Virus genome (UHGV): UHGV-0283685
Direction: 5' to 3' (one strand)
DNA: 10,034 nucleotides
Source of the DNA: a virus
Shown here: piece by piece, positions 181 through 6,495 of the stretch
Layout: every line of letters starts with the position of its first letter
How positions within the stretch are numbered: position 1 is the first letter of the stretch
Notes under the pieces: model-generated
What the model saw: the letters and a program-made list of their open reading frames with translations, nothing else
What the model was told of the DNA's origin: nothing
The model's database searches: none
Made by a program: the position numbers and the translations under genes

Positions 181-2832
181 TTACACTCCTGATACTTCAA
201 TAGATAGTTGAATCTTATTTGGCATCTTGTTGCTTAAATATATGGTTGCAAAGTCAAACGAAATATTTAAGTTATTTTCATCACCATCATTATCTGAAAG
301 AACTCCGGTTTTCAATACAACATTTTGCTTATTAATTTCTTTTAAAGGAGAAAAATCAATTGCCTCACCACGATGAATAAGAACACCAACTGCAACTACC
401 CCATGAATATCAAGTATGTCGTGCATATCAAGGCGAACACATGGGACGTATCCACCAACAAGGATACTTGTAGATTTGTTGGCTTCAAGTGTTATTAGAT
501 ATTTTCCGTCTGGTTGAACTATTGTTCCTGCTATTCCATCTGGCGTGTTGAACATACCGCAGTATCTGTATCCTGCTCCAACAGGAACAATTCTGTTACC
601 GCCAAGATCATGGAAATTTCGAACAATTATTGCACCAGGAACTGATGAATAAACCATTACTGCCTCTGTTTGCCCTGATACAGAGTCTGATGTTTCTGGG
701 TTCGCCATGCATAAATTACCACCAAAATAAATATTTTGGATTAGAGGGGTGAGGCCATCATTAACCTCAAAACGTAAAAAGCCCTTGAGAACAGTCCTTG
801 CGGTATTATTCTTAATAACAACAGGAAGTTCTTTATAGTAAGAGTTTCTGTCTGTCTGTGCCAGAGTTGTTTCAATAAAAACAAAAGGTCTGTGATTACG
901 TTGAGTTGCATTCACAGGTTTGTACCTCAAGTTGTATGGCAAAGACATCTCAGTAAAACCATCAATATAATTACAGTTCTGAATCGTGAACCCACCACCA
1001 CTATATCTTACAAAAAAAGGAGCCGGTCCGCTAAATCCCCTGGCGTTCATTCCATCATACACTTCATTTAATCCGCGTATTACACCAGCATAATACAAAT
1101 TGACTGAATTGCCGCCTGTAAAAGTTGTTTCGTATGATGGGCCGTGTCCACCGCAACATGAATTTCTTGTATCGCCATCAGGGAAAAATTTAACTCCATC
1201 ATATGCAGTTCCACCACCCATCATCGTTGGATTTATAATGTTATTATACAGTGATACCATTTGAGTCCCGCTTACATCAAGCCCCCTCCTGCAAGCAAAT
1301 GCTATCATATCCACGACTGTGCAATAGCTGCTATTGTATATTTCAACACCATAACCAGTGCCGTTTGTTAAATCATATGCACGGTTTGAGTATTCAATAT
1401 ATGGCTCTATTATTTTCGTTCTGTAGCATGACTCAAGAAAAATTCCAGTTTCTGAAAAGCCGATTAGTTTTATTCCTTCTATATGCATATCAACAGCGCC
1501 ATCTATCACAAGACCACGGAACCCCAAATCACCAGGAGATGCGTTCTGCGTGACAGGTCTTTCAAAATTGAAATCACCGACAATTCTGCCGTAGCATGGT
1601 TTTCTTTTATATATATTTGCCTTTCTTGTGATTTTAAACACGTCTCCAACAGATGGTTTAAACGGGAATGGTCCCTGAGCATATTCAAATTTTGCTGTTT
1701 TAGTGTCGTAATCCCAATGAGTTATGTATCTTGATATTCCGGCGTTAGCTCCGGTGACACCTGTTACTTTTACCTGATTGTATTGTTTTGTTAATGTTGC
1801 ATCATTACCAAATGAGAATTCACCTCCGGATACAGATGCTGTTACGGTCGTTGAGTAATCATTGCTCGCAGAGTAGAAAAAATAAAATGCACCTGATATC
1901 TCCGCTTTTTTTGTTGCATTATCAAAAGCAGTAACAACATGCATTTCACCTTCACAAGCCTGTCCTCTATTATCTGTCTGAATTAAGCGATTGCCATGAA
2001 TCATAATTATATCGCCTGCATCAACAGAATATGCTGAGTTAATTGATATTGATGTGTCACCAGGATTTATTGTTGAATTATAGTCAATTGGCGTGGCATC
2101 TCCACCTTCGAGTCTTATGAAATAATCATCAATCCAGTTTGGACCAAGAGGCTCTTTTGCGGTTGACTTTAAGACAACCTTGCCATCAGCTACCCAGTCA
2201 TAGTTATAATTATCCCCGCCGCATTTTATGCGGCTAATCAAATACACACCAGAATCCCACTTCAGGCGTTTTCTGTTAGATGCGCAGTAAATGATGGCAT
2301 TTGTTATTGCGTATGTATCGTCAGTAATGCCATCCCCTTTTGCACCAAAATCGCGAACATTTACATGGTCATCAAGTTTATCCTGTAGCGTCCTTTGTGT
2401 TGCTCCGTCTACTTCTTCTGGAAGACCGTACTTATAATTTATAATTGATGGAGTTGAACCATTGTTAAACTTATTCTCTAGTTCTTGTTTAAACTGATCA
2501 GGATCATATTTCAGAATGTTTGGAAAATAGAACTGCTGCGCCCCATAAGCATCGTAAACAGCCATAGAATGGCCTTGCACGGTTACGAATTTGGCAATCT
2601 GTCCGTTATATACCGGATATCCAGCAGCGTTAATGATGATTGGTTGCGAAACAGGAACGTGAGAACCGTCTTCGTTCTCCACATAAACCTGAATCTGGTT
2701 TTCAGGATTTACCGGGTCAGTGTCAATTTTTCCGATATAAATTTTGCCATTGGCTACGGCTTTAAAAGAACGAGCCATAGTGAAGAGTTGCGAAGGCATC
2801 GATACGATCACATTGGCTGTAATGTCTGTCAT
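181..2832 (-). CDS. Tailspike protein: P22 gp9-like N-terminal head-binding domain fused to a long, different receptor-binding region (883 aa)
   Basis: N-terminus [11 protein letters not shown]...[37 protein letters not shown]...[15 protein letters not shown]...LKYDPDQ closely matches the recalled P22 tailspike N-terminal domain; the remaining ~770 aa does not resemble P22 gp9. ATG at 2830-2832 with GGAG 8 nt upstream; stop TAA at 181-183. Confidence 0.9.
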
Positions 2833-2964: not shown

Positions 2965-3222
2965 ATGATGTACAGCAAATACGATGAGGCGCAGTTCCAC
3001 TTGAGGCTTACGCACGAGTTGCACGCTAAGATTAAGCAGCGTGCAAAAATGAATAACAGGTCTATCAATTCCGAAATTGTGGCTACGATGGAAGAATCAC
3101 TCTCCAAACCATCACCTGTAAGCGGGTATCGTGATGAAGAAGAGAGGTTGGCCTCATTAATCTCGGAGCGAGTAAAAGAAGTTGCGGCTGATATCCTTAG
3201 AAAAGAAAAAACCCGCGATTAA
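2965..3222 (+). CDS. mnt: Mnt-like ribbon-helix-helix repressor, second paralog (85 aa)
   Basis: FHLRLTHELHAKIKQRAKMNNRSINSEIVATMEESLSKPSPVSGYRDEEERLA aligns along most of its length with recalled P22 Mnt (…NGRSMNSELLQIVQDALSKPSPVTGYRNDAERLA…). Start moved from the track's TTG at 2884 to ATG 2965, which has GGTGAGG 5 nt upstream and gives an N-terminus of Mnt-like length. Stop TAA 3220-3222. Confidence 0.75.
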   Translation: MMYSKYDEAQFHLRLTHELHAKIKQRAKMNNRSINSEIVATMEESLSKPSPVSGYRDEEERLASLISERVKEVAADILRKEKTRD

Positions 3223-3236: not shown

Positions 3237-3458
3237 TTAGTTATCAAAAAGTCCGTACGTTTCTTCTTCTTCAGGTGTAAGGGGAAGAATCTCTACTCTA
3301 TCTATAGATATCTTTTCAATGTACCCATGAGGTCTACTTAAAATTAAAGCTCTCTCATGCCACAGAACTCCAAGAATGTGATACCTTCCAGCATCGCCTT
3401 TTACCCTGGCTCTTCCTTTGATTCTTGGCGGCATAATGCCATATTTTTTCTTTGCCAT
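3237..3458 (-). CDS. Hypothetical basic protein (73 aa), translationally coupled to the upstream gene
   Basis: ATG at 3456-3458 overlaps the upstream stop as TAATG. N-terminus is Lys/Arg-rich (MAKKKYGIMPPRIKGRARVKG). No own SD within normal spacing. No family recognised. Confidence 0.5.
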   Translation of the reverse strand: MAKKKYGIMPPRIKGRARVKGDAGRYHILGVLWHERALILSRPHGYIEKISIDRVEILPLTPEEEETYGLFDN

Positions 3459-4186
3459 TATGCAACATTACTCCCATGAATCAGGTGTTGTAGTGCTTTA
3501 ACACCTTCCTCATTGTAGCGGAATGCTTCCACCTGTTTGCTGGAATGCGCAGATTTATCCAGGAAGAACTTCCCGTACTGCTCAGTTTTGAGGTTGTTTG
3601 CGTTAGCAATGCGACCAATCTTGTTGGCCGTTACTCCAAGCTGCTCTGCAACCTCCCCTGCTGAGTAGTAATGCTCTTCTATTGCTGGAAGAGGTATTGC
3701 ATTAAAACCAACGATCGGGTTGATTATGCTTGCTGCCGCAGTCTGCTTTGCTTCCGGCGCAAGATTTGGCATCAAATCGAACAGATTGGTAACAGCTTCA
3801 ACCGTCATTTTCAATGTTCGCGCCTGGCGATACTCAACAAGTCCACTAGACGATTTACCGCTTTTAATGTGCGCTTCTTGCATACTTTCAAGTTGGTCTA
3901 CAAGTGAGCGGCGAACAGCTTTAGATTCACGAGCAGCCACTCGAAGGGCTTGCTTAATTGACATAACAACTTTTTCAGAAGTTGTCTTGTTTGATTTTTG
4001 AACTACGAAAATTTCGTAGTGCTCACCTTCAAGTTCATCCTTAATGCGTGCAATAAAGTCGTTATTGCGGACTTCTTTTTCCCCGCACTGTCTACGAGCA
4101 TGATTGACCATCTCTAACAGGTACTGGCTATCAATGGTTTTATCCGTGACAACGGATCCGATGTTTGCTACATTCTTAAAAGTCAT
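3458..4186 (-). CDS. Phage antirepressor/regulatory-like protein with C-terminal KilA-C/ORF6C-type HTH-like segment (243 aa)
   Basis: C-terminal YSAGEVAEQLGVTANKIGRIANANNLKTEQYGKFFLDKS...GVKAL has the look of the DNA-binding C-terminal domain of phage antirepressors. Start set at ATG 4184-4186 (AAGGAA 6 nt upstream) rather than the track's GTG at 4237, which lies inside a terminator hairpin. Confidence 0.65.
   Translation of the reverse strand: MTFKNVANIGSVVTDKTIDSQYLLEMVNHARRQCGEKEVRNNDFIARIKDELEGEHYEIFVVQKSNKTTSEKVVMSIKQALRVAARESKAVRRSLVDQLESMQEAHIKSGKSSSGLVEYRQARTLKMTVEAVTNLFDLMPNLAPEAKQTAAASIINPIVGFNAIPLPAIEEHYYSAGEVAEQLGVTANKIGRIANANNLKTEQYGKFFLDKSAHSSKQVEAFRYNEEGVKALQHLIHGSNVA
4146..4174 (+). 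promoter_or_regulatory. Candidate antisense promoter (sar-like copy 2)
   Basis: -35 GTGACA (4146-4151), 17-bp spacer, extended -10 TGcTACATT (4166-4174), located just inside the start of the minus-strand gene at 4186. The motif TTTGCTACATT nearly matches TTTGCTACAAT at 4885-4895. Confidence 0.35.
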
Positions 4187-4274: not shown

Positions 4275-4901
4275 TCAATGAATCCATTCCTCGCCGCGCA
4301 GTTTTGCCAGCATTGGCTGAGCGTTCTTTACGACAAAATTGTTGGTATCAAGATTCTTCATTTCACGAAGAAGTGATTTCTTGGTTTCTTCTGACATGTA
4401 GCGAGTCTCATATGCAATATCGTAAATCCTTCCTGAAAGCTCAGAACCAATTTGCTTCATTCCTGGGTAGATGTGTTTGCACATTTGTTGACTCTTCTCC
4501 ATCCACAATTGTAAGTAGCAGAGATTAACCAGTTCTTCGTCAGTAAACTGTTTTGCAATCGGTGAGCATTCTGCCTGCCGATCCAAAATATCCAGCACCC
4601 AGCGGCGGAACTCTTTGGCTACCTGAGTGCGAGCAAACATCGCGATTAGGTGGGCACCGCGTAGTGAGAAAACACGCACTTTTTTACGATAATTTCCTGA
4701 GGTACTCACTTCGAGTACCTGAGTCATTCCGGCGCTAAACTCATCGCTATACTTGTTATAAATCATTGTTACTGCACGACTATTTGCGTATTTAAGTGCA
4801 GATGCAATATTAGATGATGTAAACCAAACACCATGCATATCACGGGTGGGCACCAATTCAACTCCGTGGAAGTTGTAATCTGATTTTGCTACAATATTCA
4901 T
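4275..4901 (-). CDS. ant: Antirepressor with Bro-N domain (Ant-like, 208 aa)
   Basis: YNFHGVELVPTRDMHGVWFTSSNIASALKYANSRA...LIAMFARTQVAKEFRRWVLDIL fits the Bro-N fold pattern. It sits directly downstream of arc, as ant does in P22. Start set at ATG 4899-4901 (AAGGAA 6 nt upstream) rather than the track's 4985, which overlaps arc. Confidence 0.75.
   Translation of the reverse strand: MNIVAKSDYNFHGVELVPTRDMHGVWFTSSNIASALKYANSRAVTMIYNKYSDEFSAGMTQVLEVSTSGNYRKKVRVFSLRGAHLIAMFARTQVAKEFRRWVLDILDRQAECSPIAKQFTDEELVNLCYLQLWMEKSQQMCKHIYPGMKQIGSELSGRIYDIAYETRYMSEETKKSLLREMKNLDTNNFVVKNAQPMLAKLRGEEWIH
4887..4895 (+). promoter_or_regulatory. Candidate Psar-like antisense promoter (extended -10)
   Basis: TGcTACAAT (4887-4895) on the plus strand, immediately next to the ant start codon (4899-4901). 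No convincing -35. Confidence 0.35.
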
Positions 4902-4976
4902 GTTAGTTTCCTTGCATACGGTTACTGACATAGAGGCCCGGTTTGTGTTCACGCACTGCCGGGCTTCACTATTTTT
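4902..4976 (+). ncRNA. sar: Candidate Sar-like antisense RNA (about 75 nt), complementary to the ant RBS and the arc-ant intercistronic region
   Basis: Position and orientation match what is known for P22 sar (a small antisense RNA of about 68-69 nt from the arc-ant intercistronic region). Plus-strand hairpin GGCCCGG (4935-4941) / CCGGGC (4959-4964) followed by TTCACTATTTTT (4965-4976). Confidence 0.4.
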
Positions 4977-5148
4977 ACTGGGCATTAGCTCTTTCCTCTC
5001 TCAGGCTTTTAGCCAGTCGCTGCACAATCGCAGAGTTGATAGAAATTCCATCCATTTCAGCAACACGTCTAATCTCCTCCTTCATTCGCGCTGGCAAACG
5101 AAGCTGGAAACTTTGACTTTTACGACCTGTGTAAAGCACATCTTTCAT
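4975..5148 (-). CDS. arc: Arc-like ribbon-helix-helix repressor (57 aa)
   Basis: SFQLRLPARMKEEIRRVAEMDGISINSAIVQRLAKSLREE aligns with recalled P22 Arc (QFNLRWPREVLDLVRKVAEENGRSVNSEIYQRVMESFKKE). Start set at ATG 5146-5148 (GGGAGAA about 6 nt upstream) rather than the track's GTG at 5161-5163. Stop TAA 4975-4977. Confidence 0.8.
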   Translation of the reverse strand: MKDVLYTGRKSQSFQLRLPARMKEEIRRVAEMDGISINSAIVQRLAKSLREERANAQ

Positions 5149-5169
5149 AAGTAATTCTCCCACAATGAT

Positions 5170-5223
5170 ACCAACTTGGTTCTAGAACCAATTTAACACC
5201 ATTTATTTTGATGTCAAGTTGGT
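5170..5223. promoter_or_regulatory. Operator cluster: 16-bp perfect palindrome TTGGTTCTAGAACCAA plus extra TTGGT/ACCAA half-sites
   Basis: Perfect palindrome at 5176-5191. Overlapping palindrome ACCAAcTTGGT at 5170-5180. A further caagTTGGT at 5215-5223 overlaps the -35. All lie between the divergent arc (-) and Mnt-like (+) starts. Confidence 0.55.
5190..5217 (-). promoter_or_regulatory. Candidate Pant-like promoter for arc-ant
   Basis: On the minus strand: perfect -35 TTGACA (plus 5212-5217), 16-bp spacer, -10 TAAATT (plus 5190-5195). Predicted start falls inside the 16-bp palindrome. Confidence 0.5.
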
Positions 5224-5259
5224 GCTATTGTTTAGCGAACATCTTTACGTTGAGGTCAT

Positions 5260-5580
5260 ATGAGCAAGTTCCCTAGTCATGAAATGGATAGGTTCAATAT
5301 CAGGCTTCCTGCAGGAATGCGGGATGCTATAGCTGAACGAGCCAAACGTAACGGCAGATCAATGAACTCAGAGATTGTTCAGATACTGGAAGATGCCTTG
5401 AATGCAGAAAATACACTCGGGGAAATAGCAGATAAAATCAACAGCGTCTCGGTTCCGCTAAATGTTGATGCGCTAGTTCAACTTCAAGCCCAGGTTATCG
5501 CCATGCAAAAAGAAATACAGGAAAAGTTCAGAGAGCAGAACGAAAAGTTGAGAGAACTGCTAAACAAAAAAACCACCTGA
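5260..5580 (+). CDS. mnt: Mnt-like ribbon-helix-helix repressor with C-terminal coiled-coil, divergent from arc (106 aa)
   Basis: RFNIRLPAGMRDAIAERAKRNGRSMNSEIVQILEDAL closely matches the recalled P22 Mnt RHH region (RAEANGRSMNSELLQIVQDAL), and the C-terminus ends KKTT as Mnt does. The C-terminal half is heptad-like (LVQLQAQVIAMQKEIQEKFREQNEKLRELL). ATG 5260 with GAGG 4 nt upstream. Occupies the mnt position opposite arc. Confidence 0.8.
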   Translation: MSKFPSHEMDRFNIRLPAGMRDAIAERAKRNGRSMNSEIVQILEDALNAENTLGEIADKINSVSVPLNVDALVQLQAQVIAMQKEIQEKFREQNEKLRELLNKKTT

Positions 5581-5606
5581 CGGTGGGTTAATTTTTGCCT
5601 TTTTTG
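5572..5606 (+). terminator. Candidate intrinsic terminator after the Mnt-like gene
   Basis: Stem CCACC (5573-5577) / GGTGG (5582-5586), loop TGAC, followed by GTTAATTTTTGCCTTTTTT. The stem is short (5 bp), so this is only moderate. Confidence 0.45.
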
Positions 5607-5678
5607 GACCATATTGACTACTCATAAAATGAGATCAATATTTAATCGCCCAATAACGGGTGCATGTTGAGGTATATC

Positions 5679-5858
5679 ATGGCGAAAAAACCAGGTGAAA
5701 ACACAGGAAAAAACGGCGGAATATACCAAGAAGTTGGCCCGCGCGGAGGTAAGAAAGACAATTTTGCCACCGTCAAGGACAACGAAAGGCTTCCGCCAAC
5801 AACAAAGCCAGGTCATGGCTGGGTATTAGATAAGCGAACTCCAGACAGCAAAAAGTAA
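5679..5858 (+). CDS. Small hypothetical protein (59 aa), possibly YjzC-like
   Basis: ATG 5679 with GAGG 6 nt upstream (the track's 5664 start lacks an SD). MAKKPGENTGKNGGIYQEVGPRGGKKDNFATVKDNERLPPTTKPGHGWVLDKRTPDSKK is Gly/Lys/Pro-rich. The pattern KPGE..G.NGGIYQEVG...G...LPPT...G..W resembles the small YjzC-like proteins as I remember them. Candidate promoter upstream: TTGACT at 5614-5619. Confidence 0.55.
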   Translation: MAKKPGENTGKNGGIYQEVGPRGGKKDNFATVKDNERLPPTTKPGHGWVLDKRTPDSKK

Positions 5859-5864
5859 TAATCA

Positions 5865-5886
5865 AGCCGGGTCACTCCGGCTTTTT
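5865..5886. terminator. Bidirectional intrinsic terminator between convergent genes
   Basis: Stem GCCGG (5866-5870) / CCGGC (5877-5881), loop GTCACT, then TTTTT (5882-5886). An A-rich run on the other side (5851-5865) serves the minus strand. Overlaps the stop (5872-5874) of the 121-aa gene. Confidence 0.5.
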
Positions 5887-6237
5887 GATATGTCGCTCGC
5901 AGAACTCAACAAGCCTGCTCATTAAGTAGCAGTAAGTCTCGTTGGCTCTTCCTGGTTCAACATCAACGCCGACCCTTGAGCAGATATCGAATGCCATGTG
6001 AGCGCACTCATGGGCAATAGTAGATAGTTTACCATTGAACACACCTATCACATGCAAAACACCATTCTCGCTGCTCATTGTATGAGACGCTCCGTTGGCA
6101 TCCGAGTCCTGCACGTCCACGCCAAGTTTTTGATGCAGGCGTTGCCATTCTGGAAAGTCTCTGCAAAACACAATTGTACCGCTCTCAAAGAGCGGAACGA
6201 GCATTTTTGGTACGTTTCCAATGTTAACTTTTTTCAT
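5872..6237 (-). CDS. Hypothetical protein with HExxH zincin-like motif (121 aa), possibly a minimal metallopeptidase
   Basis: Uninterrupted 122-codon frame with ordinary coding composition. ATG 6235-6237 with AGGA 4 nt upstream. Contains STIAHECAHMAFDI, with several Glu residues 14-30 aa downstream that could supply a third zinc ligand. No family assignment possible without a search. Confidence 0.6.
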   Translation of the reverse strand: MKKVNIGNVPKMLVPLFESGTIVFCRDFPEWQRLHQKLGVDVQDSDANGASHTMSSENGVLHVIGVFNGKLSTIAHECAHMAFDICSRVGVDVEPGRANETYCYLMSRLVEFCERHIKKPE

Positions 6238-6267
6238 GGTATCCTGCTCAAAACTAAGGAGGTTGGT

Positions 6268-6495
6268 GTGAAGCGATGGTTCCTCATAATTACTGTTTTC
6301 GCGATCATTTACACTATTTTCCCTGCATTAAAAGCACCAATGCAAATAATTTCACTAGCAATAATTTCGATTAGTGCTTTCATTGCAGTAGCCGTACTTG
6401 TGTTTAAGGTTTTAAAGTTTTTAGTTTGGCTATCAAAAGATGATGGATGCAAAGTTCATCAAGAAAAAGAAGGCAAAATAACCAAAGTTGACTAA
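6268..6495 (+). CDS. Small hydrophobic protein with two predicted TM helices (75 aa), GTG start
   Basis: Strong SD AAGGAGG (6256-6262) 5 nt before GTG 6268. Two hydrophobic segments (WFLIITVFAIIYTIF and MQIISLAIISISAFIAVAVLVFKVLKFLVWL) then a charged tail. AT-rich. Its stop overlaps the gp16-like stop on the other strand by 3 nt. The track's N-terminal extension to 6052 is antisense to the 121-aa gene and was rejected. Confidence 0.5.
   Translation: MKRWFLIITVFAIIYTIFPALKAPMQIISLAIISISAFIAVAVLVFKVLKFLVWLSKDDGCKVHQEKEGKITKVD

Follow-up and report, generated by a model that had tools for sequence, protein, structure and literature searches.

The TTGGT/ACCAA elements clustered in the control region of the antirepressor locus analysed here are, in the reading that we hold with moderate confidence, the operators of the Mnt-like RHH protein encoded from position 5260 and not those of the Arc-like protein encoded divergently from it, and they would be organised in three sites, O1, O2 and O3. 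The comparison of related cassettes also leads to the conclusion that the Arc-like protein would not depend on the TTGGT sites. To judge from its sequence features, the locus is a further instance of the well-known P22-type antirepressor switch, and the result mainly corrects a proposed mechanism, i.e., the sharing of half-sites by the two repressors, rather than revealing a new system. The silence of prophages depends on antirepressor cassettes of this type, which are found in many E. coli genomes, including Stx-converting phages. The assignment of a repressor to its sites tells what sets the immunity specificity of such a cassette and how recombination reshuffles it.

Layout of the antirepressor locus

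The window, i.e., the whole stretch of 10,034 nucleotides of the viral genome UHGV-0283685 that was analysed, comes from a P22-like (Lederbergvirus-type) prophage, in which positions 5149-5259 control an antirepressor switch of the immI type. The genes are arranged in the order injection genes, Mnt-like gene, Arc-like gene, antirepressor gene, two more genes, a second Mnt paralog (Mnt2) and the tailspike gene, and the location of the divergent mnt-like and arc-ant genes between the injection genes and the tailspike gene corresponds to the layout of P22 immI. The genes, RNA and promoters in and around the control region are the following:

5260-5580, plus strand: Mnt-like RHH gene, 106 aa, with an RHH domain closest to those of AmrZ and Mnt
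4975-5148, minus strand: Arc-like RHH gene, 57 aa (MKDVLYTGRKSQSFQLRLPARM...), Pfam Arc PF03869, E = 8e-12, aligned to the P22 Arc structures
4275-4901, minus strand: antirepressor gene (ant) with Bro-N (PF02498, 1e-9) and P22_AR_C (PF10548, 4e-14) domains, start taken from RefSeq
4887-4972, plus strand: predicted sar-like cis-antisense RNA, with an extended -10 TGcTACAAT at 4887-4895 and two hairpins plus a T-run at about 4900-4972
5190-5217, minus strand: Pant-like promoter, with the -35 TTGACA at 5217-5212, a 16-nt spacer, TGn at 5198-5196 and the -10 TAAATT at 5195-5190
5202-5231, plus strand: candidate promoter of the Mnt-like gene (Pmnt), with an extended -10 TGcTATTGT at 5223-5231 and a weak -35 TTTATT at 5202-5207

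Both repressors are Arc-family RHH proteins, as stated in the initial annotation, each with a Pfam Arc domain above the gathering score; the three small proteins of the locus reach 45.2, 73.1 and 55.8 bits with PF03869, for a cut-off of 20.4. The RHH domain of the Mnt-like protein matches AmrZ (1e-8) and Mnt (7e-8), and the rest of the protein is devoid of C-terminal homology to P22 Mnt, the BLASTP similarity ending at residue 48. A long helix is predicted in this C-terminal part by single-sequence AlphaFold at low confidence (pLDDT 66), and the monomer model, in which no strand was formed, was used for this helix only.

The promoter of the sar-like RNA lies inside the 5' end of ant, and the RNA is complementary to the ribosome-binding site and the start codon of ant. 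Its fold has a z-score of -5.4, and it aligns to the sar region of P22 and to relatives, in which two-sided changes of the terminator stem preserve the pairing. It is conserved in the cassettes of Oslo, KP12 and the Stx phages, and a search of Rfam with this RNA gave no match at threshold, symR appearing below threshold (E = 0.88).

The Pant-like promoter was recovered as sigma-70-like (10/12 plus an extended -10) by the promoter scan of the minus strand, and its hexamers are kept in all specificity classes of the cassettes compared below; transcription of arc-ant would start near 5183. The candidate Pmnt, which overlaps Pant in a back-to-back arrangement, was not called by the promoter scan of the window. 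Its placement at 5202-5231 is suggested by the conserved extended -10 and the weak -35, T5226, A5227, T5231 and the TG being conserved in class A and positions 5229-5230 being variable. A direct repeat (5128-5145 and 5229-5246) was taken as a chance occurrence; it is absent from the KP12 sequence, as judged by eye.

E. coli 55989 carries the segment 4900-5650 with 100% identity, and 357 of 5426 complete E. coli genomes contain parts of the stretch. The tailspike ORF (181-2832, minus strand) encodes 883 aa in the window, versus a 660-aa head-binding-domain protein in E. coli 55989. Because the tailspikes differ while 4900-5650 is identical, the window would represent a prophage different from that of 55989, with a tailspike exchanged independently. 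On the other side of the locus, positions 5564-6270, which comprise the terminator after the Mnt-like gene, orf59a and the adjacent minus-strand gene, are 97% identical to P22 and to many Salmonella P22-like phages. The neighbouring repressor genes do not share this P22 identity, which marks the 3' end of the Mnt-like gene as a sharp mosaic boundary.

Reading strands and sites in 153 related cassettes

The DNA-reading strands of the two repressors were compared with those of RHH proteins of known structure. Alignments to 1mnt, 1arq and 3qoq reveal an N-terminal strand with alternating outward-facing residues ending in an invariant Arg. The contact roles of the residues listed for P22 Arc and Mnt are established, and those of the window proteins are predicted from the alignment to the Arc, Mnt and AmrZ structures:

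Window Arc-like protein (predicted): S13, Q15, R17
Window Mnt-like protein (predicted): R11, N13, R15
P22 Arc: Q9, N11, R13
P22 Mnt: H6, N8, R10
AmrZ: K18, V20, R22 (PMC3325190)

The strands of the window had been described as near-identical, which is overstated. QSFQLRLPARM of the Arc-like protein and DRFNIRLPAGM of the Mnt-like protein are identical at 6 of 11 positions, for the most part in core or structural residues (F, L, P), and the family-invariant Arg is the only contact residue which the pair has in common. The contrast drawn with P22, whose two repressors recognise different operators, also runs in the wrong direction, since P22 Arc (PQFNLRWPREV) and Mnt (PHFNFRMPMEV) agree at 7 of 11 strand positions and at two of the three contacts, and yet bind different operators.

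To identify the protein that reads the sites, 153 related cassettes were gathered from annotated phages and from IMG/VR; they are phylogenetically related, and some contigs were fetched twice. All 93 loci with a Mnt-like strand of the RFN[IV]RLP type carry at least two intergenic TTGGT/ACCAA elements, and the Arc-like strands found in these loci are SFQLRLP, VFNLRLP, AFNLRLP, QFSLRLP and RFTLNLP. The 23 loci in which the Arc-like strand SFQLRLP accompanies other Mnt-like strands possess 0-1 TTGGT and unrelated sites. Depending on the Mnt-like strand found beside SFQLRLP, these sites consist of TGATGTC/GACATCA (RFT[VI]R[ML]P, 21 loci), GTCACnGTGAC (KFMVRFP) or AACACCAT (KFNLRFP). The assignment of the sites to the Mnt-like protein comes from this double observation, because the sites follow RFN[IV]RLP whichever Arc-like strand is present, and the same Arc-like strand meets unrelated sites. 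Across the 153 loci, TTGGT/ACCAA tracks the Mnt-like strand and not the Arc-like strand, which speaks against the claim that the repressors share half-sites.

The lineage L108-L116 illustrates this situation, with an Arc-like protein 96% identical to that of the window and an unrelated set of sites. The DNA of L108 is at least 88% identical to the window from the 5' end of ant to about position 5124, and the control region beyond is unalignable. All of the observed switches (at least seven) part the sites from arc, and none parts the sites from the Mnt-like strand. Linkage could contribute to part of this covariation, because the operators adjoin the 5' end of the Mnt-like gene.

The pairing of contact residues with half-sites was read from the loci L004, L021, L052, L108, L117, L119, L152, L158 and L165. 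The pairs comprise R-N-R with ACC, R-T-R with ATC, K-V-R with GGC (as in AmrZ), K-T-R with GGC and an AAATT linker, K-M-R with GTC, V-N-R with CCC, and H-N-R with TCC (P22). Relatives whose Mnt-like contacts are K-V-R, i.e., those of AmrZ, carry GGC-ATTAT-GCC, which provides an independent check of the operator format. The comparative set provides matched pairs of a reading strand and an operator.

Mosaic joints occur in the Mnt-like gene at about 5292 and 5372, at or after the strand codons. The Mnt-like genes of Stx phages are 94% identical in DNA from about 5292, inside the strand codons, and other E. coli prophages match the window over 4900-5372 and then diverge. On account of these two joints, the Mnt-like gene behaves as three exchangeable parts: the strand with the operators, the RHH helices, and the C-terminal domain. 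As a separate observation, some class-A relatives possess an 18-bp palindrome of the type TGATACAAATTTGTATCA between the promoter and the start codon of the Mnt-like gene. This palindrome, which does not occur in the window, is perfect in L075 and L076 and near-perfect in L118, L120, L121, L125 and L130.

Format of the predicted operators and nature of the palindrome

The perfect 16-bp palindrome TTGGTTCTAGAACCAA reported previously is confirmed in the window at 5176-5191. As proposed, it lies over the -10 and the likely start site of the arc-ant promoter, covering the final 2 bp of the -10 and reaching about +8. Three more half-sites had been said to flank it: two of them (5170-5174 and 5219-5223) are exact pentamers, and the third (5197-5202) reads CACCA(T), a degenerate form. 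One half-site had been placed over the -35; the pentamer itself sits 2 bp past the hexamer (5212-5217), and it is the extended element 5210-5226 that overlaps the hexamer. The palindrome and the predicted operators are distributed as follows, all without strand assignment:

5167-5183: O1, GATACCA-ACT-TGGTTCT, 17 bp, core ACC-AACTT-GGT at 5170-5180, dyad on C5175
5184-5200: O2, AGAACCAATTTAACACC, weaker and half-symmetric, core ACC-AATTT-AAC at 5187-5197, dyad at 5192, covering the Pant -10
5210-5226: O3, GATGTCA-AGT-TGGTGCT, core GTC-AAGTT-GGT at 5213-5223, dyad at 5218
5176-5191: palindrome, composed of TTGGTTCT followed by AGAACCAA
5198-5202: orphan half-site ACCAT, the degenerate third site mentioned above, conserved as CAcca

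The palindrome says little by itself, since a perfect one of 16 bp turns up in 15% of shuffled windows. The cluster is a stronger signal: CAASTTGGTNCTA has 8 matches with up to two mismatches in the 10-kb window (1.5 expected), four of which are located within 5166-5227, and none of 200 shuffles got to 8. The first suggestion, that operators cluster at the arc-ant promoter of an immI-like region, appears supported. The weight of the palindrome comes from its position and from its conservation in relatives, and both speak against a pure chance origin, which was rejected in spite of the frequency in the shuffles.

The solved complex of AmrZ with amrZ1 (PDB 3QOQ) consists of a dimer of dimers bound to GGC-AAAAC-GCC, with 3-bp half-sites and a 5-bp A/T linker, and the Arg of AmrZ contacts the G opposite the inner C (PMC3325190). 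By comparison, the functional unit in the window is most likely a 17-bp site which would be bound by a dimer of dimers; it most likely comprises two 3-bp half-sites, whose inner C:G would be read by the invariant Arg, and a 5-bp AAnTT linker. Written in this 3+5+3 format, the sites read:

Window O1: ACC-AACTT-GGT
P22 Omnt: TCC-ACGGT-GGA
Class E: ATC-ATTTT-GAT
Class D: GGC-AAATT-GCC
Class C: GGC-ATTAT-GCC

Both the inner C/G of the half-site and the Arg of the strand occur in every class. The AmrZ-type format, i.e., inverted 3-bp half-sites with an inner C/G and a 5-bp A/T-rich linker, was found in O1 and O3, and in one half only of O2; C-AAnTT is common to all three sites of the window.

O1 is located at about +1 to +17 of Pant and reads AGAACCAA.G.TTGGTATC on the minus strand, i.e., over 5167-5183. 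Like P22 Omnt, it is a 17-bp dyad beginning 7 nt past the Pant -10, and the two are identical at 9 of 17 positions, including the CCA...TGG core. Most classes, like P22, possess a palindrome whose dyad falls on a base pair +14 to +17 past the -10; in P22 this is Omnt (+15), an operator defined by experiment. In the Stx class B the best site of this kind is found at +18 (5/8), and in the KP12-type and QFS class-A variants no such palindrome is among the top matches. The symmetry of O1 in the window is only 5/8, with a perfect 11-bp core, and its left half is GTC, not ACC, in many relatives. O2 occupies the position of the second palindrome of class E, at -2 from the end of the -10, and its CCAaTTTa is conserved in class A. 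O3 lies across the -35 of Pant and also across the TG/-10 of the candidate Pmnt. As a direct repeat 43 bp apart, it matches O1 at 13 of 17 positions. The O1-O3 spacing of 43-44 bp is maintained in classes A, C and E, and the O1-O2 and O2-O3 spacings, 17 and 26 bp in the window, are 16 and 27 bp in class C and 18 and 26 bp in class E.

The consensus of class A (atg..acCaA.TTGGt.CTA.aaCCAaTTTa.CAccattt...a.gaTGTCAAGT.GGTGCTAt..T) bears on the nature of the palindrome, even if the conservation of CTA and TGCTA could partly result from constraints on the start site and the -10. The outer TTGG/CCAA of the palindrome is kept in the class-A relatives and its centre (T5181, G5185) is not, C5182 being invariant and its symmetry mate G5185 variable. 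The perfect form of the palindrome is restricted to the window, Oslo and L062 sub-lineages. The palindrome probably forms where the right arm of O1 meets the left arm of O2, as a by-product of adjacent operators; it would be perfect because these two arms are abutting inverted copies of one half-site. Similar junction palindromes occur in classes D and E.

A Mnt-like tetramer is unlikely to use the 16-bp palindrome itself as its primary operator, with dimers on TTGGT and ACCAA, 11 bp apart, and with the elements at 5170, 5198 and 5219 as auxiliary sites on one helical face. In this view, the junction would have become the main tetramer site of class A. In the window and in several class-A relatives no other site is as symmetric as the palindrome (8/8, 7/8), both of its arms are conserved (TTGG and CCAa), and its G-rich strand is oriented as in the GGC...GCC of AmrZ. 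In addition, the TGG/CCA centres at 5178, 5189, 5200 and 5221 are spaced by 11, 11 and 21 bp. However, the dyad would fall between base pairs, within a 6-bp TCTAGA linker, which is a format absent from the other classes, from P22 Omnt and from AmrZ, and the inner base of the arms is T/A, not the C/G paired with the invariant Arg. The variation of the centre, with an invariant C5182 and a mate that is not, also stands against this reading, and the junction palindromes of classes D and E are explained simply by adjacent operators.

With O1, O2 and O3 as operators of the Mnt-like protein, we infer a scheme of binding, stoichiometry and order of occupancy from the sequence features, positions and covariation observed. 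In the lysogen, the Mnt-like protein, which is probably an oligomer assembled via the long C-terminal helix predicted at low confidence, would fill O1 and O2 and shut off arc-ant. This occupancy would free the overlapping, back-to-back promoter of the Mnt-like gene itself from competition, and at higher concentrations of the protein O3 would be filled as well, resulting in negative autoregulation. The sar-like RNA would block the translation of ant, and the Arc-like protein would be made from the arc-ant transcript.

The Arc-like protein, Mnt2 and known systems

An operator for the Arc-like protein was searched for in four Mnt-like classes with the common Arc-like strand SFQLRLP, using position-anchored k-mers (k = 6-10, up to two mismatches) and per-class column consensus from -45 to +72 around the -35, and none was found. 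Between the -35 and the -10 of Pant no Arc operator is recognisable either, and the spacer of the window is taken up by Mnt-type sites.

It is rather improbable that the Arc-like protein binds a short or degenerate site at the junction of the -35 and the spacer (TTGACAT...), overlapping O3/O2 without sharing half-sites. TTGACAT, along with two spacer A's, is the sole element in common among all SFQLRLP modules, the modules with a VFNLRLP strand (n = 3) have TTGACAC instead, and P22 Oarc begins at the final base of the -35. Against this, the shared element coincides with the -35 hexamer, which served as the anchor of the alignment, conservation does not extend to a second half-site, and the association of TTGACAT/TTGACAC with the strand comes from 3 loci.

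An extended version of the operator assignment seems equally doubtful. The Mnt-like protein alone would run a three-operator switch on both divergent promoters, and the Arc-like protein, devoid of an operator in the control region, would act elsewhere, via the -35, or via a protein or RNA partner, and the series of strands and half-sites would constitute a readable recognition code. If true, this widespread cassette family would offer a natural specificity-swap series, and a recognition code for this RHH subfamily.

The model of the initial annotation, in which one set of TTGGT/ACCAA half-sites serves both the Arc-like and the Mnt-like protein on account of near-identical N-terminal strands, is very improbable: the strands of the window share F-x-[LI]-R-L-P-A-x-M, both proteins belong to the Pfam Arc family and a separate Arc-like operator was not found, but the predicted contacts of the two proteins differ at two of three positions, P22 Arc and Mnt are more alike at their contacts and yet have distinct operators, and the same Arc-like strand is met with at least four unrelated site sets and the TTGGT set with five Arc-like strands.

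Besides the pair of repressors of the control region, the locus harbours a true homolog of P22 Mnt:

2968-3222, plus strand: Mnt2, full-length P22 Mnt homolog, 47% identity over 73 aa including the C-terminal/tetramerisation region, Pfam Arc

Mnt2 also occurs in phage JEP4, and its gene faces the tailspike gene head-to-head and runs against the late operon. Its strand residues Q-H-R are unlike all others seen, and it plausibly binds elsewhere than the TTGGT cluster, as had been suggested. A search for its operator in the DNA upstream of 2968 gave no strong inverted repeat, the only candidate being a weak ACC-GAAAT-GGT at 2893-2903; by our own estimate, a motif as short as this one has about two chance occurrences in 10 kb.

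The locus resembles P22 immI (Mnt/Omnt, Arc/Oarc, sar, ant) in its gene order and genomic position, the divergent, overlapping arrangement of Pant and the candidate Pmnt, its RHH repressors and its antisense RNA across the ribosome-binding site of ant. It differs from P22 immI in its operators and base-contacting residues, in having three related Mnt-type sites versus one in P22, and in the lack of a recognisable Oarc in the promoter spacer. [quoted passage not shown] Among solved structures, the Mnt-like RHH domain matches that of the Pseudomonas protein AmrZ best, and O1 has the same format as amrZ1. In contrast, AmrZ is a chromosomal global regulator and the Mnt-like protein a phage switch protein, with R-N-R contacts, ACC/GGT half-sites and G-rich strands oriented outward.

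The region corresponds to the highly mosaic stretch between gene 16 and the tailspike gene described as the 'ant moron' of P22-like phages, with its variable sets of mnt, arc and ant. That study lists the gene content; operators were not analysed, and the specificity type of the window is not described (Villafane et al. 2008, PMC2629481). Homologous cassettes are found in Stx phages, in ES18-like phages (Oslo, SPN3UB) and in Klebsiella phages, Oslo and KP12 having the site set of the window. Unlike the window, these cassettes are inserted in siphovirus tail-gene regions and are known from annotation only, and the strands and sites of the Stx-type cassettes differ from those of the window. Literature searches returned no experimental work on the cassette type of the window, and PDB 9PIO ('Arc family DNA-binding protein') was set aside as irrelevant, since it deals with Arc as a ClpXP substrate.

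Apart from the control region, CTACGAAAATTTCGTAG at 4003-4019, inside the coding sequence of the gene 3458-4186, forms a perfect 17-bp palindrome centred on a base pair, as in the Mnt-type operator format. It is unchanged in 22 fetched loci with different Mnt-like classes and may simply be conserved coding sequence.
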